A stretch of DNA of 64,000 nt. Source: Nitrospirales bacterium. Its GTDB lineage: Bacteria > Nitrospirota > Nitrospiria > Nitrospirales > UBA8639. The DNA lies in the NCBI GenBank assembly GCA_965223295.1, contig CBDCWC010000002.1:704001-768000 (forward strand), read 5' to 3'. Below are positions 1,606 through 29,103 of this stretch, one piece after another (within the stretch, counting starts at the first letter, position 1; every line of letters starts with the position of its first letter). The translations under genes were made by a program, and so were the position numbers. The notes beneath the pieces are model-generated. The model was not told where the DNA came from and did not search any database. It saw only the letters and a program-made list of their open reading frames with translations.

Positions 1606-2006
1606 CTATTGGACAAAGAATTTTGGAGTCATAGCCACATTTGGGAAAGCTCGGAGGACCTGCCGATCAGCCGTAATCAATGGGATTTCTAGATCTATCG
1701 CAAGGCTAACGAATTCACAATCATAGGTAGAACAACCAGACTTTTTCGCCAACTGCATGACTTGCTGCGATACAATTGAAAATCACGCCCAGCCATCCAC
1801 TGCTCTGCTTCAGCTACGATGATCCGAACATCGGCAAAACTCACTTGTTGATGTCGCTCTAAACCGATCAAAGTATTCCGAAATTCTGAACGCCAGAGGA
1901 GAGGAGCGGCCCAGGCTGGGTCTTTGCGCAACACTTCTTCAGCTTCTCCAGTGCGTTGTCCCGTGACATAGAGATAGATCAACTTATTCGTTTCCGCAAC
2001 AATTAC
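1606..2006 (-). pseudogene. vapC: VapC/PIN-domain toxin, frameshifted, start codon degenerate
   Basis: First frame reads (V)IVAETNKLIYLYV...WRSEFRN; after a frameshift near 1780 another frame gives SGCSTYDCEFVSLAIDLEIPLITADRQVLRAFP to TAG at 1606. Confidence 0.75.
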
Positions 2007-2245
2007 GGCCTTCCTTTGCTCTTTAATTCCTGGAGCGTTTTATCGGTGAGGCGTGCGTGAATGGATGTCGGTCTGATGGCATGAACCTTGGCTAACAAGC
2101 TGTCAGGATCAAGAGGAACACTTCCCGCTGCACATTCTAGGCAGCGGATGACTTCATTGTTGAGACTACAGCGACACAGAGATGCTTGAAGTTTTAACTT
2201 CTCTACAAGAGTCTGAGGAATGTTTTTAATCGTCAAGTTCGCCAT
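2003..2245 (-). CDS. FitA/Arc-like ribbon-helix-helix antitoxin
   Basis: MANLTIKNIPQTLVEKLKLQA...SLNNEVIRCL; AGGAG RBS; overlaps the PIN gene start. Confidence 0.8.
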   Translation of the reverse strand: MANLTIKNIPQTLVEKLKLQASLCRCSLNNEVIRCLECAAGSVPLDPDSLLAKVHAIRPTSIHARLTDKTLQELKSKGRP

Positions 2246-2277
2246 GAAGGCCACTCCTATTTTCTGTGATAACATAC

Positions 2278-2294
2278 GGTTCCAAAAAGGAACC
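2278..2294. promoter_or_regulatory. Palindromic operator upstream of the antitoxin gene
   Basis: GGTTCC-AAAAA-GGAACC perfect inverted repeat about 30 bp upstream of the antitoxin ATG. Confidence 0.5.
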
Positions 2295-2405
2295 ATAATG
2301 AAATCGTAGGCCACAATACCCTATCTGCCAATGAGGCAGCTAAGAAAGTTAGCTATAACGACTTTGTCAGATGAGATTTTTCTTCCAAGATTCTAGGAAA
2401 TGCTC

Positions 2406-2606
2406 TTATTCTGGGTAAGGCGATTGACTTTCTTCTTGTTTCATCTTGTCAAAGAATCGGTCGGCGTCTTGCTGGATCTCGTTTTTTGAAGGTTCCGGCT
2501 GAGGGTCCGGAGCTGACGAACAATTCACCACCAGCATTCCCGCCAATATGAGGCAAGCCATTGCTATTCCTTTGACCTCTAAAACAATTGATTGCATCTT
2601 GATCAT
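2406..2606 (-). CDS. small hypothetical lipoprotein
   Basis: 66 aa; GAGGAG RBS; hydrophobic stretch ending VVNC-SS, then an acidic Pro-rich tail. Confidence 0.6.
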   Translation of the reverse strand: MIKMQSIVLEVKGIAMACLILAGMLVVNCSSAPDPQPEPSKNEIQQDADRFFDKMKQEESQSPYPE

Positions 2607-2705
2607 GAGTATTCTCCTCTCACTACGATCTCGGCACTTACTTTAATTCGACTTTCATCATACCCTACCGTGATCATGAATTGACGCACAAGAAACTGTT
2701 GAAAA

Positions 2706-2734
2706 TTGACTGGGGTAGAGGGGTCTGCTACGGT
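2706..2734 (+). promoter_or_regulatory. sigma70-type promoter for transketolase
   Basis: TTGACT-17 bp-TACGGT with extended TG. Confidence 0.5.
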
Positions 2735-2784
2735 TTGAGACAACCTCAGGTGCTATCCCAAACTCAGAAAAAAAGGAGTCGTGT

Positions 2785-4641
2785 GTGACCACTATTGGAG
2801 CTACCCAATTACCTGAACAGCTTCGTCAAAAAGCCGATCAACTGCGTATTCATAGCATTCGAGCCACAACCCAGGCTGGAAACGGTCACCCAACCAGTTG
2901 TTGCTCCGCTGCCGATATCGTCGCCACACTGTTCTTTTCAGTGATGCGGTACGAGCCGAAAAATCCGCGTAACCCTGATAATGATAGATTTATCTTATCC
3001 AAAGGCCATGCCGCACCACTGCTGTATGCCGCATGGGCTGAAGCTGGGCTCTTTGACCCTAAAGAATTACTTGAGCTTCGTACATTAGAGTCAGATCTTG
3101 AAGGACATCCTACCCCCCGCCTCTCGTTTGTGGATATGGCTACTGGTTCACTCGGACAAGGCCTTTCTGTGGGCATTGGTATCGCCCTGAATAATAAGTA
3201 TTTAGATAAAACACCTGCTCGGACTTATGTGGTCTTGGGTGATGGCGAATCAGTAGAAGGCTCGGTCTGGGAAGCAGCTGATGTGGCCCGCCAGGCTCAA
3301 TTAGATAACCTCTGCGCCATCATTGATATCAATCGGCTTGGGCAATCAGACCCGACCATGTTGCAACATAATGTGAATGCCTACAAGGCACGTTGGGAGG
3401 GATTTGGCTGGAAAGCCATCTGTGTCGATGGTCATGACCATGCGGAATTACTCCAGGCTTTTGCAACGGCAGAACACACCGCCCAGCAACCCACGATGAT
3501 TTTAGCCAAAACCTTTAAAGGTAAAGGAATTTCATTTGCTGAAGATCACCCCAGCTGGCACGGCAAACCGCTCAACGCTGAGCAAGCCGAAGAAGCCATT
3601 CGCGTCTTAAGCCAAAACCTGACATCTCCCGCACCGGGTCTCGACATTGTCGAACCAACAACCGTGCAGCGGACAAACGGAGCCGCCACAGCGCTACCAG
3701 CTCCATCCTACAAACCAACAGATTCTGTCGCAACACGCGAAGCCTTTGGCGAAGCCTTAGCACAACTCGGTGAGGTGAACCTGCATGTCGTTGCTTTAGA
3801 TGCGGACGTCAAAAACTCAACGTACACAGATAAGTTTGGCAAACGATTTCCTGAACGCTTCTTTGAAAATTTTATTGCTGAACAAAATATGGTCGGCACA
3901 GCCGCCGGACTTGCCGCTTGTGGCAAGATTCCTTTTGCTGCCACATTCGCTGCCTTTTTCTCACGAGCCTATGATTTCATCCGCATGGCCGCCATCAGCC
4001 AATCCAATATTAAATTGATGGGCTCCCATGTGGGCGTGAGCATAGGAGAAGATGGTCCATCGCAAATGGGCTTAGAGGATCTTGCGATGATGGCTGCTCA
4101 GCCTGGAGTGGTCGTGTTATACCCCTCCGATGCCGTGTGTGCCTATCGGCTGGTGGAAACGATGGCTACCCACAAAGGCATGGTATACATGCGTACTGGA
4201 AGGCCTAAAACGCCTATCCTGTATGACACAAATGAGACCTTTACGATTGGAGGCTCCAAAGTCCTCCGGCAAAGCGACAAAGACCAACTCACCATTGTTA
4301 CAGCCGGCGTCACGCTCTTTGAAGCACTAAAAGCCTACGACGAATTACAGAAGGCCGGCATCACCGTGCGCATCATCGACCTGTATAGCATTACTCCCAT
4401 TGATACCGCCACGCTCAAGCAAGCTGCCATCGCTACCAACAAACGTCTCCTCACCATTGAAGACCATTACATTCATGGCGGATTGGGGGATGCCGTCCTG
4501 AGCGCTTTGTCAACAGAAGGCGTTTGCCTCCACAAAATGGGCATTCAGGAAATTGCCCATAGCGGCAAGCCCGCCGAACTGTTAGATCATTACGGTCTCA
4601 GTGCCCGAGCCATCATCGAAAAAGTTAAACAACTTGTTTAA
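2785..4641 (+). CDS. tkt: transketolase
   Basis: DRFILSKGHAAP, EGHP, TGSLGQG, GDGESVEG TPP motif, GEDGPSQ; AGGAG RBS before GTG. Confidence 0.95.
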   Translation: MTTIGATQLPEQLRQKADQLRIHSIRATTQAGNGHPTSCCSAADIVATLFFSVMRYEPKNPRNPDNDRFILSKGHAAPLLYAAWAEAGLFDPKELLELRTLESDLEGHPTPRLSFVDMATGSLGQGLSVGIGIALNNKYLDKTPARTYVVLGDGESVEGSVWEAADVARQAQLDNLCAIIDINRLGQSDPTMLQHNVNAYKARWEGFGWKAICVDGHDHAELLQAFATAEHTAQQPTMILAKTFKGKGISFAEDHPSWHGKPLNAEQAEEAIRVLSQNLTSPAPGLDIVEPTTVQRTNGAATALPAPSYKPTDSVATREAFGEALAQLGEVNLHVVALDADVKNSTYTDKFGKRFPERFFENFIAEQNMVGTAAGLAACGKIPFAATFAAFFSRAYDFIRMAAISQSNIKLMGSHVGVSIGEDGPSQMGLEDLAMMAAQPGVVVLYPSDAVCAYRLVETMATHKGMVYMRTGRPKTPILYDTNETFTIGGSKVLRQSDKDQLTIVTAGVTLFEALKAYDELQKAGITVRIIDLYSITPIDTATLKQAAIATNKRLLTIEDHYIHGGLGDAVLSALSTEGVCLHKMGIQEIAHSGKPAELLDHYGLSARAIIEKVKQLV

Positions 4642-21151: not shown

Positions 21152-22456
21152 ATGACCCGTCAACTCCCCGAAGAACTCATTCTCCTCATTCATGTCCTCA
21201 AATGGCTGATCCTCGCAGCAGGGATTGGTGCGTGCGTGGGCCTCACAAGTACAGGCTTTGTCTTGTTCTTAAATCTTTTTATTAGCCAAATGCAAAGCGT
21301 GTCTTGGACGTTTTGGCTATTGCCCCTAGGCTTAGCGCTGTCAGCCTGGATTACCACCGCCCTAGTCCCGGAAGCCGGCGGGCAAGGCGTGGAACGAGTG
21401 ATCCGGGCAATCCATTTACAATCTGGAAAAATTTCATGGCAAGTCATCCCAGCCAAAATCGCCGCCACCATTCTCACAATCGGCAGCGGAGGGTCGGCAG
21501 GGAACGTGGGACCCTGTGTACAAATAGGCAGTGGGTTCGCTTCCCTGATCTCTGATATTCTTCAATTTGACGCACCAGATCGAAAGACATTGGTCATTTG
21601 CGGATTAAGTGCAGGCTTTGCATCTATCTTTGGTACTCCCCTCGCTGGAGCGTTTTTTGGGATCGAGGCCCTCTTTGTTGGCTCATTAACGTATCATGCT
21701 TTGTTTCCTTCCGTGGTCGCCGCTATGGTCGGCTCCATAACCGCACAATTTGCTGGAATGCCAGCCATGGGGTTTGTGGCCTCAGCCTTTCCGATCATGG
21801 ATGGCACGCTTTTATTACTGGCCTTATTGGGAGGCATGATTTTTGGCCTTTGCTCACTAGTGCTTGTTGAATGTCTTAACGGCGCTAAGCGGCTAACCTA
21901 TTATTTGCCGGTTTCACCTTTCCTCCAAGGTGCTATTGGAGGAGCTCTCCTCTTTGGGATCACCTGGCTTGCTTCGCCGGAAGTCCTCGGATTGGGGAAG
22001 GAGACGATTCAACGAGCGTTGGAAGGAGGCTCGATTGCCTGGGGCTTGGTATTGGGAAAAATCCTGACCACAACCCTGACACTGAATACCGGTGGGAGCG
22101 GCGGGATTGTTTTACCGATATGTTTTGTTGGAGCAACGGCAGGGTCTGCACTTGGATGGGCTCTCGGTCAAGATCCCAGTCTGTTTGCCGCGTTAGGATT
22201 GGCGGCACTCTTAGCCGGTTCCATTAACACACCTGTGACAGCGGTTCTGTTGGGGCTCGAATTATTTGGGATGGCGAGCGGACCCTACCTCTTACTGAAT
22301 TGCACGATGGCCTTTTTACTCTCTGGGCATCGCAGTGCTATTCCAACTCAACTGCTGCAATTCCAAAAGGCTCCAGCATTGCAAGCACAAATCAATCAGG
22401 AAATTGGAAGTCTTGAGAGAAGAAAGTCAGACACGTTCCAGGATGGAAACACATAA
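21152..22456 (+). CDS. CLC-family chloride channel/transporter, atypical signature residues
   Basis: PEAGGQG, GGSAGNVGP, FGTPLAGAFFGIE, GGSGGIVLP, NTPVTAVLLGLELFG. Confidence 0.9.
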   Translation: MTRQLPEELILLIHVLKWLILAAGIGACVGLTSTGFVLFLNLFISQMQSVSWTFWLLPLGLALSAWITTALVPEAGGQGVERVIRAIHLQSGKISWQVIPAKIAATILTIGSGGSAGNVGPCVQIGSGFASLISDILQFDAPDRKTLVICGLSAGFASIFGTPLAGAFFGIEALFVGSLTYHALFPSVVAAMVGSITAQFAGMPAMGFVASAFPIMDGTLLLLALLGGMIFGLCSLVLVECLNGAKRLTYYLPVSPFLQGAIGGALLFGITWLASPEVLGLGKETIQRALEGGSIAWGLVLGKILTTTLTLNTGGSGGIVLPICFVGATAGSALGWALGQDPSLFAALGLAALLAGSINTPVTAVLLGLELFGMASGPYLLLNCTMAFLLSGHRSAIPTQLLQFQKAPALQAQINQEIGSLERRKSDTFQDGNT

Positions 22457-22584
22457 ACCGGAAGGGAAAACGACGGCCTATACCTTTCGCGAATCTGAAA
22501 CCTCTTCTTTAGGTTTCAAACAACGCCGCACGAACCACATGAATCCCATAAACAAGTGAGAAGACTCCCGTCTGATGAAAACAA

Positions 22585-22917
22585 TTAGGAAAGAGCATCC
22601 TGCTCGGTTGGACAAATCACAATCAGATCATGAAGTTGTAAATTTTTCACCAAGTCCCCAACAAAACCTTGAGGTTCAATCCAGGAAATTTTGCGTCCCA
22701 GGTCTTTGAATTGTTGCGAACACAATATGAGAAATCCCAGACCTGCACTGTCCACAAATGTTAATCCTTGCAGATTAAGAATCAGATGTTCAAATTCGGT
22801 CTGGCAACATTGATTAATGATCGCTTTCATATGCCATCGGGAATGCATATCCAACCGGCCATGAAAGTCTACCACCGTGGCCCCTGGACAACCTCGTACA
22901 ATTACATCTATCGCCAT
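22585..22917 (-). CDS. STAS domain protein (anti-sigma-factor antagonist)
   Basis: GRLD...LILNLQGLTFVDSAGLG. Confidence 0.85.
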   Translation of the reverse strand: MAIDVIVRGCPGATVVDFHGRLDMHSRWHMKAIINQCCQTEFEHLILNLQGLTFVDSAGLGFLILCSQQFKDLGRKISWIEPQGFVGDLVKNLQLHDLIVICPTEQDALS

Positions 22918-23144
22918 GATCTTATGAATCTTATCGGCTTCCTGAGAAGAAGCTTGACAGTTTTTCGTATACATTGGTGGTTCACTTCTCTTGTACCAAC
23001 ACATCGTCATCTGCGGGATATTTCACCTGTTATCCCGATTTTTATAGTTTTACCTATATAGAGACACATTAGGAGGGGCTGTTGAATACTGATGATATTA
23101 ACGGCCAAATTTTCATCTCTGCGACGTCACATGTCAGAAGCCTC

Positions 23145-23264
23145 GGGTCTGTTCAAAAAGGTTCGTTCAGCAAGGCCGCAGCCATTCTTGCGCACGGAGC
23201 GTACTGATTATGTGAGCAAGGAAAAAGGGCGAGAACGCCGGTGACGGCTATTTTCAAAAGACCC
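23145..23264. mobile_element. MITE-like non-coding element (120 bp)
   Basis: Imperfect terminal inverted repeats GGGTCTGTTCAAAAAG / TATTTTCAAAAGACCC; no ORF. Confidence 0.6.
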
Positions 23265-23268
23265 GTTA

Positions 23269-25167
23269 GTGTTTTTTCCGATCACTCCTGATACAATTTT
23301 ATTGTCCATGCCGCCTGCCATTCATCCGATTGACCTCATTGAAATCCTTCGTGAGCACCAGTTAACTCCCGCCATTATCTTTTTGACTTCTCGACGCGGA
23401 TGCGACGAGGCTATCGACACCTTTCTCCATACGTCAGCGGGTATCTCAGCTTCTCATTCCGTAGCCATTCAGACATTTTTTGAACAATTTTCTCAAGAAT
23501 TCCCAAGTATCGCGGATCATCCCCTCATCCCTGTCGTGCAGGAATATGGCGTAGCCGCCCATCATGCAGGACATTTGCCTTCCTGGAAAATGGCTGTTGA
23601 AGAACTGATGCGGCGAGGGCTTCTAGATGCGGTGTTTGCCACCACCACTCTCGCCGCTGGTGTAGATTTCCCCGCCCGAACCGTAGTTGTGAGTCAATCC
23701 AGTGTCCGTAAGTCACAAGATTTTACAGATTTAACGGTCAGCGAAATTCAGCAGTTAGCTGGGCGAGGAGGACGCCGGGGAAAAGACTTTGTGGGATTTG
23801 TCGTCATTACCCCATCGCCATACATCGATTTGCATGTGTTAGGCAAGGGCCTCACGGGCCATCCTGAAGCCATTGATAGTCAATTTTTGGTCTCCTACCC
23901 TATGGTCTTGAATCTCCTCAAGGCTCATACAGTGGATCAAATCGAAGGACTGTTGGCCAAAAGTTTTGCACAGTTTCAACTGAATCAACGCGCCACGGTT
24001 CACCAAGATCGGTTGGATGACATAAACGAACAACTTGTGCCCTATGGTCCCAGAGAATGTGCGGATTGGGTGGCACAATGGAAAGTGTTCGATTTGGCCC
24101 GCCGCCGCAAAGCTCATCGCCGGCCAGTCCTGCATACTGATACACCCTATCTCAAGGCCTCTTTGCCATTCCTGACTCCAGGCCGCCTCGTTGCCTTGGC
24201 CAAAGGTCCCGCCATTATTCTTCGCCAATATCGAAGCCGCGGCACAGGCACCCCAATGTTGTCCGTCCTCCATGCAAAGGGGACCATTGGGGAATGCCAG
24301 GCACAACGCGTGGCACAGATCTACGATCAGGTGTATGACTTTCAACCCATTCGGACTTTACCGTGGTGTCCACCTCGCACTCTGCATCATTTTAAAACCG
24401 TCTTGACTCAATTGCCGTCCAGGCTGCCGACCGTGCCGATTTTTGAAGCCAAGCAAGACATGGAAGATCCGATGTTAACCGCTGTGCTCACAGATGAATT
24501 TGCCTGTCCGTCCTGCCCCTCACATGCCGCATGCAAGAAAGATTTCCCCCTCGCCTCACGCCTACGACTAAAAGCCCAACAACTCACGAAAACGATTCAG
24601 GCTTTACGTGATGGTCTGTGGCATCAATTTCAACAAAAGGGTGATGTGCTCCATAAATTTGACTACATCACTGCAAGCCTGCAATTAACACAAGACGGCG
24701 AATGGGCTCGTCTCATTCGCATTAACCATTCCCTGTTGATCACCGAACTCATTCGGATGGAGGCATTTTCCGGCGTAACGCCAGCTCTTCTGGCAGGAGT
24801 GATGGCAAGTATCGCCCATGACGATGATCGCCCTAGTTCCTATATGCGCCTATCGGCTGGGATGAGTTCAATGCTTTCTCAAGTGAGGCAGGTCGCCGAT
24901 TCACTTCATGCCTATGAACCAGCTCCGCTCCTGCGATCAGATGTCGCCGCGATCGCGGAACGCTGGATTGGACAGACCGATCTCAGTTGGACTTCCCTGG
25001 TCAAGTCCACTTCAATGGCTGAAGGTGATGTCTATCGTCTTTTAGCCAGAACCTTGGAATTTCTTTCACAAATCTATGGGCTTAAAGCGACCCATCCAGG
25101 GTTGGCAGATTCCGCTCATGCAGCCATGGTGAATATGCGACGGGAAGTCTTGGCCGAATTACCCTAA
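23269..25167 (+). CDS. HelY/Ski2-like SF2 helicase, C-terminal half (RecA2 plus DSHCT); start may be ATG at 23308
   Basis: PAIIFLTSRRGCD, GVAAHHAGHLP, VFATTTLAAGVDFPARTVV, QQLAGRGGRRGKD, MAEGDVYR; no Walker A or B. Confidence 0.85.
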   Translation: MFFPITPDTILLSMPPAIHPIDLIEILREHQLTPAIIFLTSRRGCDEAIDTFLHTSAGISASHSVAIQTFFEQFSQEFPSIADHPLIPVVQEYGVAAHHAGHLPSWKMAVEELMRRGLLDAVFATTTLAAGVDFPARTVVVSQSSVRKSQDFTDLTVSEIQQLAGRGGRRGKDFVGFVVITPSPYIDLHVLGKGLTGHPEAIDSQFLVSYPMVLNLLKAHTVDQIEGLLAKSFAQFQLNQRATVHQDRLDDINEQLVPYGPRECADWVAQWKVFDLARRRKAHRRPVLHTDTPYLKASLPFLTPGRLVALAKGPAIILRQYRSRGTGTPMLSVLHAKGTIGECQAQRVAQIYDQVYDFQPIRTLPWCPPRTLHHFKTVLTQLPSRLPTVPIFEAKQDMEDPMLTAVLTDEFACPSCPSHAACKKDFPLASRLRLKAQQLTKTIQALRDGLWHQFQQKGDVLHKFDYITASLQLTQDGEWARLIRINHSLLITELIRMEAFSGVTPALLAGVMASIAHDDDRPSSYMRLSAGMSSMLSQVRQVADSLHAYEPAPLLRSDVAAIAERWIGQTDLSWTSLVKSTSMAEGDVYRLLARTLEFLSQIYGLKATHPGLADSAHAAMVNMRREVLAELP

Positions 25168-25186
25168 CTAAAAAAAAAGAGCACTG

Positions 25187-26224
25187 ATGAATGATGCCGA
25201 TCTACAGCGTGAATTAGCTTCTCTCCCTGTCAAGTATTTACATCAACTCGCGAAAGGGCATATCCATCGGCATTTTCGACTTGGCAAGCGTCGCCTTATT
25301 GACAATATTCTGGCTCTCCCTCCTGATCAAAAAATGGCCATCGCCAGCGCATTAGAACAGAGATCTCCCATCCCCAAAACATCTCCATCTGAGCCAACGA
25401 CAGAAGAGGATCATACACTTTTTTACCCTCAACCTCGCTCGAAAAAAAGATCCCACCATCTCAAAGCCACATCTCCAGTCGTTGAACTGCCTGAGCTTCT
25501 TGACGGAATAGGAGTACCAGAACCCAAACCATTTGTTCCCGATCCTTGGCAGCAAGAGGCTGTGGAATCCATTGCTCAGACCGACGTCATTGTCAGTGCG
25601 CCAACAGGAAGCGGAAAAACTTATGTCGCACTTGAAGCCATCAAACAAGCGATGGCTGCGAATCAAACCGTGATCTACACCTCTCCACTCAAAGCACTTT
25701 CCAATACAAAATATATGGAATTCTCGCAATGCTTTGGATCTGATCAAGTGGGCATTCTGACAGGAGATCGGCGAGACAACGCACAAGCCCCGCTTCTGGT
25801 CATGACAACCGAAATTCTAAGAAACGTCCTCTATGACTCGGCCAGCGGAGATCTTGACCTTCGTCTTCATATGTTAGGATTAGTTATTCTTGATGAGTCG
25901 CAGTATTTAGCAGATCCGGAACGAGGAGTGGTGTGGGAAGAAACGCTTATTCTTTGTCCACCGCAAACTCGTTTGTTGTTGCTTTCTGCGTCAATCGGCA
26001 ATCCTCAGGAATTGGCTGAATGGTTGACCTCCATTCGTCCAACCCGGTGCCATCTCATTCGCCATACGACTCGATCTGTTCCTCTACGGGCACTCTATTT
26101 ACATCCCACAGGACAGCTTGTCCCTCTTCTCGACAAACGAGATATTCAGCAGCAAAAGAGCTATCGGTTTCACCCAGAAACCAAACGTTTATTTGCCCAT
26201 TATGAATTTAAATCTTCACGTTAA
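25187..26224 (+). CDS. HelY/Ski2-like SF2 helicase, N-terminal half (RecA1 DExH-type domain)
   Basis: PDPWQQEA, APTGSGKT, YTSPLKALSN, GILTGD, MTTEILRN, ILDESQYL, RGVVWEE, LSAS, RSVPL. Confidence 0.88.
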   Translation: MNDADLQRELASLPVKYLHQLAKGHIHRHFRLGKRRLIDNILALPPDQKMAIASALEQRSPIPKTSPSEPTTEEDHTLFYPQPRSKKRSHHLKATSPVVELPELLDGIGVPEPKPFVPDPWQQEAVESIAQTDVIVSAPTGSGKTYVALEAIKQAMAANQTVIYTSPLKALSNTKYMEFSQCFGSDQVGILTGDRRDNAQAPLLVMTTEILRNVLYDSASGDLDLRLHMLGLVILDESQYLADPERGVVWEETLILCPPQTRLLLLSASIGNPQELAEWLTSIRPTRCHLIRHTTRSVPLRALYLHPTGQLVPLLDKRDIQQQKSYRFHPETKRLFAHYEFKSSR

Positions 26225-26437
26225 TATTTCAACTTCCAACATCATCAGCCTGCGGCATTTATCGCACACCTTGTGGTATAGAAAAGACGACGCTAAGTCA
26301 GTAATCCCATAATATATTATTAACTATCTTATAAATACTTGATTTTCTTTTGATTTCATTTCAAGCATACAATTTGCTTAATTTTTAGGCTGACGTTTAA
26401 GTCAAGAGGATAAGAGTGCCAAAATTATTAAAATAAT

Positions 26438-26977
26438 ATGAAGTTTTATAAACCCCCAAAAATATTCAAAAAACAAGCTACAATGCTGGCTGGAATGGTG
26501 CTTCTGAGTTTCAGCATCATGGGCTGTCAGAGCTTTCAGCCAAAAAATCCTGGAGAACTTGCCCTGCAAAATGATGCGTTTATTAGCTTGTGGGATGAGT
26601 ATAATCATTGCGTAGTCGGCTCGAACATCGAGGCTATGCAAGAAAGCCTTAAGGTCTTACTTGCAGCTCCATCACCCATTTCGCTTGAGGACTCTCCCAT
26701 CCCTATTCCTGATTTCCTGAAAGGATTAACAAGCAGCAGGAATTCTCGTTTATCTGTTGACCCACGCGCTATGGCGGCCTCTTGCTCCATGCATCTTGCG
26801 GAATCTGCCCGTCAGTCATCGGACTGGCATACCGCTCTCTCCACATTACAATCCATCGTCAACAATTACCCTGAGCCCCAGTATGCCTTCTATGTGTCAA
26901 AGGCCACCCAAGCCATTGAACAATTTTCCTCTATCCAACCCGTCTCACTACAATCTTGGGACGCTTTCGTTCATTAA
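26438..26977 (+). CDS. hypothetical lipoprotein
   Basis: Lipobox IMGC after a basic/hydrophobic leader; C-terminal TPR-like helix pair. Confidence 0.65.
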   Translation: MKFYKPPKIFKKQATMLAGMVLLSFSIMGCQSFQPKNPGELALQNDAFISLWDEYNHCVVGSNIEAMQESLKVLLAAPSPISLEDSPIPIPDFLKGLTSSRNSRLSVDPRAMAASCSMHLAESARQSSDWHTALSTLQSIVNNYPEPQYAFYVSKATQAIEQFSSIQPVSLQSWDAFVH

Positions 26978-27013
26978 GCTTTCTATCTCCCTTTCCTCAC
27001 AATTCCCATTCCC

Positions 27014-28459
27014 TTGATCAATAGACGCCATGGTGCCAACACTGGCTTTGTTCAGGGACGAGTTGCGATGCAAGGTTCGCGCAGGCGTCCCATCCGCTGT
27101 GTCTCATACTATATGTCCTGGCTTATACCGATGCTCATCCTGTTCGCGCCTCCGGTGGTGGCCGAAGAGAGTGCTCCAAATTCGGCCGAAACTGAGAGAG
27201 AAGTCGCCTACGACCCTTATCGTGGCGTAGATGACGATGGCCGGATTCCTAAGATCGACAAGGCCGCTCTGGTCGAGAGGCCCGAACGTTGGCGTTACGT
27301 TCCCGAAGGACGACTCAAACCCGGCGGGTTCTTCCAGCGCTTCCTGGTCTCAAGCTTCCTCGTTCCAATCGTCTTCGCCAAATCCGATGTTGGAACTGGA
27401 TTAGGTGTGGCACTGACCGATATCGATTTTCGCGCCCAACGTCGTCGCGAATTCATGGGCGTGTTCCTCTCCTACACAACTGAGGGCCAACAGAGTTATG
27501 TGGTGCGTTGGCGACGCTGGCTCAAACATCTTGAAGTCTCCAGTGGTGGCATACTCCAGGAGGAACGCAGCTTCGTTAGCATGGGCGGTGGATATCGCAA
27601 GACCCTGACCCGCCGTTTCTTTGGGATCGGTCCGTCGACTAAAGAACGCGAGGAGACGAGCTTTACCGACCAAATGGCTTTTATTGACATAGGGCTATCC
27701 ACCTCTCTCGAGGACTCGTTCCAAGATGTCGTTCTCGAACTGGGTATACGAGGGGAACACCACAGGCTCAGCCGGGGACAGGTCGGGAATGCAGGACAAA
27801 CCAGCACCGAGTTTCCCGAGCTCTTTGCCGAGGCGGACCCTTATGGTCTCGGCTGGTTGGCTGCAGGCCTTCGCTGGGACACGAGGGATAGCCTGCGCAA
27901 CCCCTACCGCGGAACGGTCCTAGGAGCAAGGATCGATGCCGCGCTGCTTCAGAATAATTGGAACCGTGGGGCGATCTACAAACTCTTCGGCGACCAGTTG
28001 ATCCCCGTCCCGGGACTCTTTCACAGCGGAGGAGATGAGGAAGAAGAGCATCCGCCAACCGACACCATCGCGCTCCACGCCGAAAGTCAACTCAGCTCCG
28101 GCGACTTGCCGTTCTTCGCCCGGCCAACGCTCGGAGGCAATAAGGTGCTGCGCGGGTATATCGCTGGTCGATGGCGAGACGATGCGGCCTGGACAGCAGC
28201 GACGGAATATCGCTTCTGGGTCTTTCCCCGCGGTTTCACCGTCTGGCGGCATATTCGTGTTGAACGCCTCGGACTGGCGATCTTCTACGAAGTTGGGGGT
28301 GTCGCGGAGAACGGAATAGGCCTCTTCCAGGAACGCGTGCGCCAGAGCTACGGGATCAGCGGTCGTTTTACCCTAGAACGTGCCGCGATCTTTCGCGCCG
28401 ATTTCGGGTTCTCGGAAGATGGCTTCAATTTTTCTGCAGGTTTCGGCCTCCCCTTTTGA
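27014..28459 (+). CDS. Omp85/bacterial surface antigen-like beta-barrel outer membrane protein (true start probably about 27113-27128)
   Basis: WDTRDS, LGG-x3-LRGY-x2-GRW, EYRF, RADFG, C-terminal aromatic GFGLPF. Confidence 0.8.
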   Translation: MINRRHGANTGFVQGRVAMQGSRRRPIRCVSYYMSWLIPMLILFAPPVVAEESAPNSAETEREVAYDPYRGVDDDGRIPKIDKAALVERPERWRYVPEGRLKPGGFFQRFLVSSFLVPIVFAKSDVGTGLGVALTDIDFRAQRRREFMGVFLSYTTEGQQSYVVRWRRWLKHLEVSSGGILQEERSFVSMGGGYRKTLTRRFFGIGPSTKEREETSFTDQMAFIDIGLSTSLEDSFQDVVLELGIRGEHHRLSRGQVGNAGQTSTEFPELFAEADPYGLGWLAAGLRWDTRDSLRNPYRGTVLGARIDAALLQNNWNRGAIYKLFGDQLIPVPGLFHSGGDEEEEHPPTDTIALHAESQLSSGDLPFFARPTLGGNKVLRGYIAGRWRDDAAWTAATEYRFWVFPRGFTVWRHIRVERLGLAIFYEVGGVAENGIGLFQERVRQSYGISGRFTLERAAIFRADFGFSEDGFNFSAGFGLPF

Positions 28460-28499
28460 AAAAATTCGCGCTGCAGGAAAACTCTGTCTCCTCACGATA

Positions 28500-29103
28500 T
28501 ATAGTCGATTAACTTTTTATTGATAAGCAAGAAAACCTGATCGAAAGCTTGAGCAAGAGGTCGTTTTGGAGTCATGATTTTACGCACCCGCACTCTAAGC
28601 ATACCCCAATAGTGTTCAATCGGATTGAGATCAGGGGAATACGTGGGCAAGAACTTGAGGGGACAGCCTCTCCTGGCGAGCAGGCTGTAAGTTTTCGGCG
28701 ATTTATGGCACGACGCGTTATCTATGATCACCGTTTGTCCGGGCTTGAGCTCAGAGAGTTACACCTCTTCCACCCACGTATTCAAGACTTGCGTAGCACA
28801 GTACCCTTCAAATCGCATGGAGCCAGCAGAGGGGAACCATTCAAAGCGGCAATGAGACTGATGCGGTGGGCTCGAGTCCCCGAGACTTCACCCATCACTT
28901 TGGTGCCGCGAAGCGCGTGCCCGTATGGACGGTGGAACGAGGCATCAACGCCACTTTCATCTAGGTACACAAGGCTTTTCGGTTCTAACCCTGCCAGCTC
29001 TTTTTGAAACTGACGGCGAGCCGCCTCGTTGCGCTCGCCGTAAAGTACAGTTTTTTTTCGAGTGATCGCCAGACGCTGACAGGTTTTCCAGACGGCACTA
29101 TAG
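28500..29103 (-). mobile_element. IS630-family transposase remnant (5' truncated, frameshift and stop)
   Basis: ITRKK at an A8 run, VYLDESG, IIDNASCHKS, FLPTYSPDLNPIEHYW. Confidence 0.85.

Follow-up and report, generated by a model that had tools for sequence, protein, structure and literature searches.

Genes for the two halves of a HelY/Ski2-type helicase lie split and in swapped order in Nitrospirales and probably specify one two-subunit enzyme

Superfamily 2 (SF2) helicases are single-chain motors with the ATP site between two RecA domains. In a 64,000-nt stretch of a Nitrospirales bacterium genome (assembly GCA_965223295.1, contig CBDCWC010000002.1, positions 704,001 to 768,000, forward strand; the whole of this stretch is hereafter the window), two adjacent plus-strand open reading frames (ORFs) separated by 19 nt divide a HelY/Ski2-like helicase between them, with the gene for the C-terminal part (C-half) preceding that for the N-terminal part (N-half), just as the initial annotation of the window had described. 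We conclude that these two genes probably specify two subunits of a single HelY/Ski2-type SF2 helicase of Mtr4 fold, whose assembly and activity we infer from comparative data and structure models. The HelY/Ski2-like family itself is known; what is new is an order-wide form that is both split and swapped, a second split lineage, and C-halves that occur without a partner.

The division of motifs given by the initial annotation is borne out by Pfam and by translation (Table 1). The C-half ORF carries motifs IV to VI and DSHCT and matches Pfam Helicase_C (E 5.3e-06, 27.1 bits versus a cut-off of 23.5), and the N-half ORF carries the Q motif and motifs I to III and matches Pfam DEAD (E 2.3e-23) as well as the DExQ-type Suv3 domain PF22527 (E 5.6e-10); for the motif names we assume the customary SF2 nomenclature, together with alignments to Mtr4. 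Over the two chains, the pair thus holds the Q motif, motifs I, Ia and II–VI, DSHCT, and an Mtr4-type fold with an arch that characterize Ski2/HelY proteins, and lacks a DExH-type motif II and a helicase core on a single polypeptide. Since the Pfam MTR4_beta-barrel family matches the C-half at only E 0.11, the assignment of the arch rests on the structure model. ATG 23308 is the sole start codon common to 23 compared loci, GTG 23269 is not conserved, and translation of the C-half most likely begins at the former; the protein read from there starts with MPPAIHP, is 618 to 621 aa long across 26 aligned genomes, and terminates in EVLAELP, of which ELP is invariant.

The break had been placed at the linker between RecA1 and RecA2, a position that the alignments refute. 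The N-half aligns to residues 81–273 of Mtr4 (chain 2xgj_A), a match that reaches past the RSVPL..YLHP strand downstream of motif III, and the match to the C-half starts at residue 335; on the fused relative P0013, the N-half match stops at residue 305 and the C-half match begins at 315–317. Because the N-half extends past RecA1 on Mtr4, it carries the first β-hairpin of RecA2 and a helix (residues 293–345). These alignments place the cut inside RecA2, in an Arg-rich loop ≈50 residues past RecA1, with a conserved MPP directly after it. Every one of the 120 fused relatives aligns with both halves, the N-half first and the C-half second, and comparison with these proteins indicates that the two halves together account for a whole fused HelY, without loss or duplication.

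We followed the pair through 40 relatives and a separate phylum sample of 301 genomes. The same C-then-N pair, adjacent and on the same strand, which the initial annotation had suggested looking for, is found in 32 of the 40 relatives (22 in genus g1 and five each in families f2 and f3). In a further family, f4, the halves are unlinked in five of five genomes: four have them on different contigs, and in the fifth (G033), whose N-half is fragmentary and located at a contig end, 13.5 kb separates them; f4 halves are otherwise intact. One relative (G034) harbors only the C-half, and two that are 66% and 83% complete harbor neither. In the phylum sample, a stand-alone N-half is present in 73 of the 76 genomes of the order, this one included, and the other 225 genomes yield two weak matches (E 1e-16 to 1e-18), both within frames 721 to 732 aa long. 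No fused copy was seen within the order, where no frame of at least 900 aa was found, and the genome itself (3.78 Mb, three contigs, 100% complete) contains no further copy of either half. A four-helix domain at the N terminus of the N-half is found in families f1 to f3 and is absent from f4 and from the fused relatives.

In alignments of 26 genomes, mean column identity is 67% for the N-half and 73% for the C-half, and the catalytic motifs on both chains are invariant, with motif II reading DE[S/A]Q and motif III SAS in 26 of 26. These are atypical, as had been noticed at the outset: fused relatives have DEAH in 118 and SAT in 113 of 120 sequences. Ratios of nonsynonymous to synonymous substitution rates (dN/dS), a check that had also been proposed, range from 0.04 to 0.14 and point to purifying selection on both halves, also where they are unlinked. 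The less diverged pairs give 0.035 to 0.135, and the unlinked f4 pair gives 0.106 for the N-half and 0.123 for the C-half at a dS of ≈0.6. Within the N-half, the ratio is lowest over RecA1 (0.04), followed by the tail (0.07) and the N-terminal domain (0.09), and is highest in the linker (0.35).

Structure models of the separate chains were compared with known folds using Foldseek, and both are nearest to Mtr4/FRH/Ski2 (E 1.3e-17 for the N-half and 2.1e-22 for the C-half), with far weaker matches to Hel308 (3e-9 and 2e-4, respectively). The N-half model consists of a four-helix domain (residues 3–57; predicted local distance difference test score, pLDDT, ≈78–88), a disordered linker (60–94), RecA1, and, at lower confidence, a tail of two strands (303–305 and 311–313) and a helix (330–341); the C-half model features stalk helices around a five-strand barrel (293–342) in an Mtr4-like arch. 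The heterodimer prediction envisaged in the initial annotation passes its controls, with an interaction prediction score from aligned errors (ipSAE) of 0.84 in three of three runs versus 0.00 for the best of three controls; this mark is attained by 58 of 80 solved complexes and two of 110 mismatched pairs, counts that are only approximate here because custom alignments were used for the complex. At least 90% of contacts agree among the runs, and the partner pLDDT is 77. The contacts of lowest expected error (0.5–0.8 Å) join N-half residues 299–305 (PLRALYL) to C-half residues 162–168 (VGFVVIT), such that the N-half tail strand is predicted to complement the RecA2 sheet of the C-half. In the same model, motifs I–III face motifs V–VI and the DSHCT C terminus contacts RecA1, and no confident contacts involve N-half residues 1–103, which include the N-terminal domain.

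Table 1. Features of the gene pair, with positions in the window
Feature	Position	Strand	Remarks
C-half ORF, longest form	23269..25167	+	632 aa from GTG start
C-half gene, conserved form	23308..25167	+	619 aa + stop, ATG start; rest of RecA2, arch, helical bundle/DSHCT
RecA2 minus first β-hairpin (C-half residues 1–205)	23308..23922	+	From sequence and Mtr4 alignment
Motif IV, AIIFLTSRR	23371–23397	+	C-half RecA2
AAHHAGHLP string	23554–23580	+	C-half RecA2
Motif V, ATTTLAAGVDFPARTVV	23638–23688	+	C-half RecA2
Motif VI, QLAGRGGRRGKD	23752–23787	+	C-half RecA2
RecA2 strand VGFVVIT (C-half residues 162–168)	23791..23811	+	Predicted partner of N-half tail strand
Arch-like insertion (C-half residues ~220–450)	23965..24657	+	Long stalk helices and five-strand β-barrel (293–342), from model
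DSHCT domain, Pfam PF08148	24682..25152	+	E 1.4e-22, 80.7 bits versus cut-off 22.7
Spacer ctaaaaaaaaagagcactg	25168..25186	+	19 nt, between the two ORFs
N-half gene	25187..26224	+	345 aa + stop
Four-helix N-terminal domain (N-half residues 1–57)	25187..25357	+	Lineage-specific
Weakly conserved linker (N-half residues 58–104)	25358..25498	+	Residues 60–94 with pLDDT <50
RecA1 (N-half residues 105–292)	25499..26062	+	
Q motif, FVPDPWQ	25532–25552	+	N-half RecA1
Motif I, PTGSGKT	25601–25621	+	N-half RecA1
Motif Ia, SPLKALSNT	25682–25708	+	N-half RecA1
Motif II, DESQ	25892–25903	+	N-half RecA1
Motif III, SAS	25985–25993	+	N-half RecA1
RecA2-type tail (N-half residues 293–345)	26063..26221	+	Strand, second strand, helix 330–341
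Tail strand RSVPLRALYL	26072–26101	+	N-half

Conservation, purifying selection, invariant halves of the ATP site, complementarity to fused HelY, and the complex model all support the earlier suggestion of a naturally two-subunit helicase. We envisage that an ancestral single gene was cut in the Arg-rich surface loop of RecA2, just before MPP, and that the pieces came to lie in C-then-N order in Nitrospirales, where they are most likely cotranscribed and, in several relatives, would be translationally coupled. The C-half would supply most of RecA2, the arch, and the DSHCT bundle, and the N-half would supply RecA1 and a tail whose β-strand inserts beside the last RecA2 strand of the C-half. Insertion of this strand would complete the RecA2 sheet and set motifs I–III opposite motifs V–VI, permitting ATP binding and hydrolysis. 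Mycobacterial HelY is an RNA-stimulated 3'-to-5' helicase, and the physically assembled pair may act on a similar substrate in a like manner. Activity would then depend on assembly of the two halves, as first proposed, a dependence qualified by two genomes that hold a selected C-half and no detectable N-half (see below).

It is hard to credit that the pair is instead the debris of a rearrangement, that is, a decaying, broken helicase gene, or an assembly artefact. An IS630-like transposase fragment ≈2.3 kb downstream and a dispersed repeat just upstream might suggest as much, but the junction is spanned by public contigs from three runs in two studies (X1 record 1, 23000–26400; X3 record 15, 23665–25927; X6 record 24, 24801–25927), the sole indel in them being 1–2 nt in a poly-A run of the spacer. 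The arrangement is, moreover, kept across four families, single-contig genomes included, and the catalytic motifs are all intact, with dN/dS values in the low range given above. The contention of the initial annotation that neither a frameshift nor a sequencing error explains the gene order therefore stands, and an assembly artefact is likewise rejected, given these contigs and an order kept in 32 of 40 relatives; a fused gene in close relatives and a misassembly, two findings that it had set against its own reading, were not encountered. Equally far-fetched is a single polypeptide made after all, whether by read-through or frameshifting into a circularly permuted C–N fusion or by protein or RNA trans-splicing back to N–C order. 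The spacer is short, and stop and start codons overlap in some genomes, but the 23 junctions examined run from 4-nt overlaps (ATGA in three, GTGA in three) through spacers of 18–23 nt (nine) to spacers of 67–178 nt (eight), in all three relative frames and with TAA, TAG, and TGA stops, a variety that favors two polypeptides, with coupling in some genomes, over a recoded fusion. A circularly permuted single chain was rejected on the grounds that a stop always intervenes between the halves, that frames vary, and that the halves are unlinked in f4; a split intein was likewise rejected, as no intein family is found in Pfam at E ≤ 0.01 and the two halves fit neatly end to end on the fused sequence. 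Neither a Pfam intein or splicing domain nor, over positions 22900–26500, any Rfam match at E ≤ 0.1 was found.

Several observations weigh against two obligate subunits of one enzyme or limit the evidence for them. Two f2 genomes, G034 and G329 (both 99% complete, in 30 contigs), carry an intact C-half (L150 and L151, 1501–3360), with a dN/dS of 0.083 between them at a dS of 0.23. The N-half is absent next to the C-half in G329, the G034 contig stops 160 nt past the stop codon, and no N-half was found genome-wide in either (A1 profile at E ≤ 1e-8; DEAD-domain frame of ≈360 aa), with G037 positive as a control; either the N-half resides in unassembled DNA of both genomes, or the C-half works without it. 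This partnerless, selected C-half suggests that the C-half may have a role that does not require the N-half. Within-genus dN/dS values (Nei-Gojobori; 0.105 for the N-half, with 18 of 45 pairs usable, and 0.057 for the C-half, with 35 of 45) are rough because dS, at ≈1.4–1.6, is near saturation. The substitution of Gln for His in motif II could alter the coupling of ATPase activity to unwinding. When folded alone, the C-half is modeled confidently except for residues 114–192 (motifs V and VI and the next strand; pLDDT 29–46), a low score in a fragment that says nothing on real folding, and the pass of the complex model may reflect model memory, since Mtr4 and Ski2 were solved as single chains. 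The halves might be proteins that do not need each other, each with a job of its own; the C-half could, for example, bind RNA or serve as an adaptor independently of ATP, and the N-half could be a stand-alone NTPase. In keeping with this are the selected C-halves that lack a detectable N-half, the unlinked halves of all five f4 genomes, and the N-terminal domain of the N-half, which is lineage-specific and under selection. We nonetheless regard separate jobs as unlikely: motifs V and VI and motifs I–III form one ATP site only jointly and are all invariant in 26 genomes, both halves occur together in 37 of 40 relatives while G217 lacks both, the N-half tail is a RecA2 element under constraint (dN/dS 0.07), and the complex model passes its controls. 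A single helicase in two subunits remains the reading that we favor.

An exhaustive search with the C-half retrieved one Nitrospirales-type representative, P0121 (620 aa, 60% identity), below which identity drops to 30–38%, and a few stand-alone proteins of C-half length, of which P0133 (621 aa) is encountered at 80 loci from soil metagenomes. This second split lineage, SP2 (contigs L070–L149, represented by P0133), probably derives from Acidobacteriota, as judged solely by its nearest named relatives. Of the 80 loci, 57 have an ORF for RecA1 upstream of the C-half on the same strand, and none has one downstream; the upstream DNA is too short to judge in 18, and the remaining five lack RecA1 over at least 1.2 kb upstream. 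Two separate frames with an intervening stop and canonical DEAH and SAT motifs are found in 51 of 53 loci examined, the exceptions being a fused 1006-aa frame (L132) and a truncated N frame (L145). SP2 is cut in the same ≈10-residue window, before MPP, as the Nitrospirales pair, and is 58–74% identical to fused proteins. In quick LG+G4 trees, the Nitrospirales halves form one clade (Shimodaira–Hasegawa-like approximate likelihood ratio test, SH-aLRT, 100) whose stem branch is 1.07 changes per site long, and SP2 is nested among fused Acidobacteria-type proteins; family f4 is sister to the rest in the C-half tree (SH-aLRT 93) and not in the N-half tree. A single origin of both split lineages was rejected by approximately unbiased (AU) tests (p 0.0034 in the C tree and 0.022 in the N tree), with the groups defined only after inspection of the first tree. 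The methionine of MPP is already present in 18 of 120 fused relatives (e.g., P0001, P0004, and P0005, the first two of which belong to the sister clade in the C tree), and the cut site may recur because this residue offers a ready start codon.

Some SP2 loci depart from close linkage. In L086, an ORF for a group II intron-type reverse transcriptase/maturase (1892–3208; RVT_1 E 1.4e-33, GIIM E 7e-4) lies between the halves, and ≈2.1–2.5 kb separate them in L108, L117, L118, and L126. In the sub-lineage nearest to P0133 (L071 and L074), a Tricorn-protease-like gene is upstream of the C-half with no N-half within 5 kb, and the halves may be unlinked there. Records named 'Cyanobacteria bacterium HKST-UBA' (P0168 and P0288–P0291) contain a related helicase of 826 aa once and elsewhere neighboring entries of 262 + 558 and 335 + 380 aa in normal order, which could be frameshifts in metagenome-assembled genomes or further fissions.

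A more speculative extension, which we consider possible and rather doubtful, is that the loop before MPP is a fission hot spot that makes HelY assembly-gated, with RecA2 inactive or unfolded until the tail strand inserts, and that DExQ, SAS, the four-helix domain, and the C-first order are adaptations to the heterodimer. The C-half would in that case also have a second, ATP-independent role, on account of which it would be under selection alone in some genomes.

For the N-terminal domain of the N-half (residues 1–60), no Pfam family was found, only sub-threshold Lambda_CIII matches in two of five sequences, and the highest score in an Atlas feature search was 0.84, with clusters carrying Rho_N or SAP at 0.81, values in the chance range that amount to no more than a lead. 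A scan of positions 22400–27100 found five promoter-like sites versus 6.2 expected and one terminator-like site, on the minus strand, versus 4.0 expected; there is no terminator-like site on the plus strand of the 19-nt spacer. One RNA run (X12) compared with the stretch yielded 0 contigs. The arch insertion of the C-half contains four invariant Cys, C251, C400, C403, and C409 in 619-aa numbering (24058–24060 and, within CPSCPSHAAC, 24505–24534), which could form a zinc site; CxxC...C strings resembling them are visible in the distant relatives P0127, P0144, and P0168. Immediately upstream of the C-half start, positions 23100–23260 hold a dispersed repeat of ≈160 nt that looks like a miniature inverted-repeat transposable element or a repetitive extragenic palindromic sequence, with at least 40 copies scored, out of 245 candidates at first look, at 82–90% identity on both strands and two contigs of the genome; in public contigs the region shows a spike in depth and numerous loose ends, and it has no Rfam match. 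Some 2.3 kb downstream of the pair, two short minus-strand ORFs (28492–28970) resemble halves of a DDE transposase, which we take to be of the IS630 type.

The Nitrospirales pair is a natural, order-wide case of a helicase chain cut inside a RecA fold with its genes swapped, accompanied by a second, independent case cut in the same loop. It thus provides a system for asking how much a helicase core needs covalent linkage and whether assembly can regulate activity, and it marks a position at which motors of this kind can be divided, of use in the engineering of split helicases. Such pairs should be annotated as one enzyme rather than as fragments or pseudogenes, and the finding bears on RNA metabolism in Nitrospira, the main nitrite oxidizers.

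Among known systems, we found no description in the literature of a HelY/Ski2-type helicase that is split, swapped, or permuted, nor of any split helicase from Nitrospira, in a full-text search that covered sources other than subscription journals and supplements. The nearest relatives are bacterial HelY proteins of 660–977 aa from Desulfobacterota and Acidobacteriota, several of them named 'ATP-dependent RNA helicase HelY' at source, which have the same domain order once the halves are joined end to end, share the arch insertion and DSHCT, and are 45–58% identical over RecA1 and 30–46% over the C-half. HelY differs in being a single chain that carries DEAH and SAT, whereas the Nitrospirales pair is two chains in C-then-N order with DE[S/A]Q, SAS, an extra four-helix domain, and a long stem branch; SP2, although cut in the same loop, has N-then-C order and the canonical DEAH and SAT. 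Eukaryotic Mtr4, Ski2, and FRH (2xgj, 4u4c, and 4a4z) are the best sequence and fold match of both halves and have in common with them a four-domain ring and β-barrel arch, but these are single chains of ≈1000–1290 aa that serve as exosome cofactors, and no exosome-type gene lies beside the Nitrospirales pair. A Hel308-type assignment was rejected, as NCBIfam equivalog scores are 50–71 bits against cut-offs of 887–1216 and fold matches fall far below those to Mtr4. Suv3-type DExQ helicases (PF22527) share with the N-half a motif II ending in Gln but lack DSHCT and the arch, and the pair is far closer to Ski2/HelY. Finally, Cas3'/Cas3'' and the split reverse gyrase of Nanoarchaeum are each one enzyme encoded by two genes and are split between whole domains, whereas the Nitrospirales cut runs through the RecA fold itself, with the gene order reversed.

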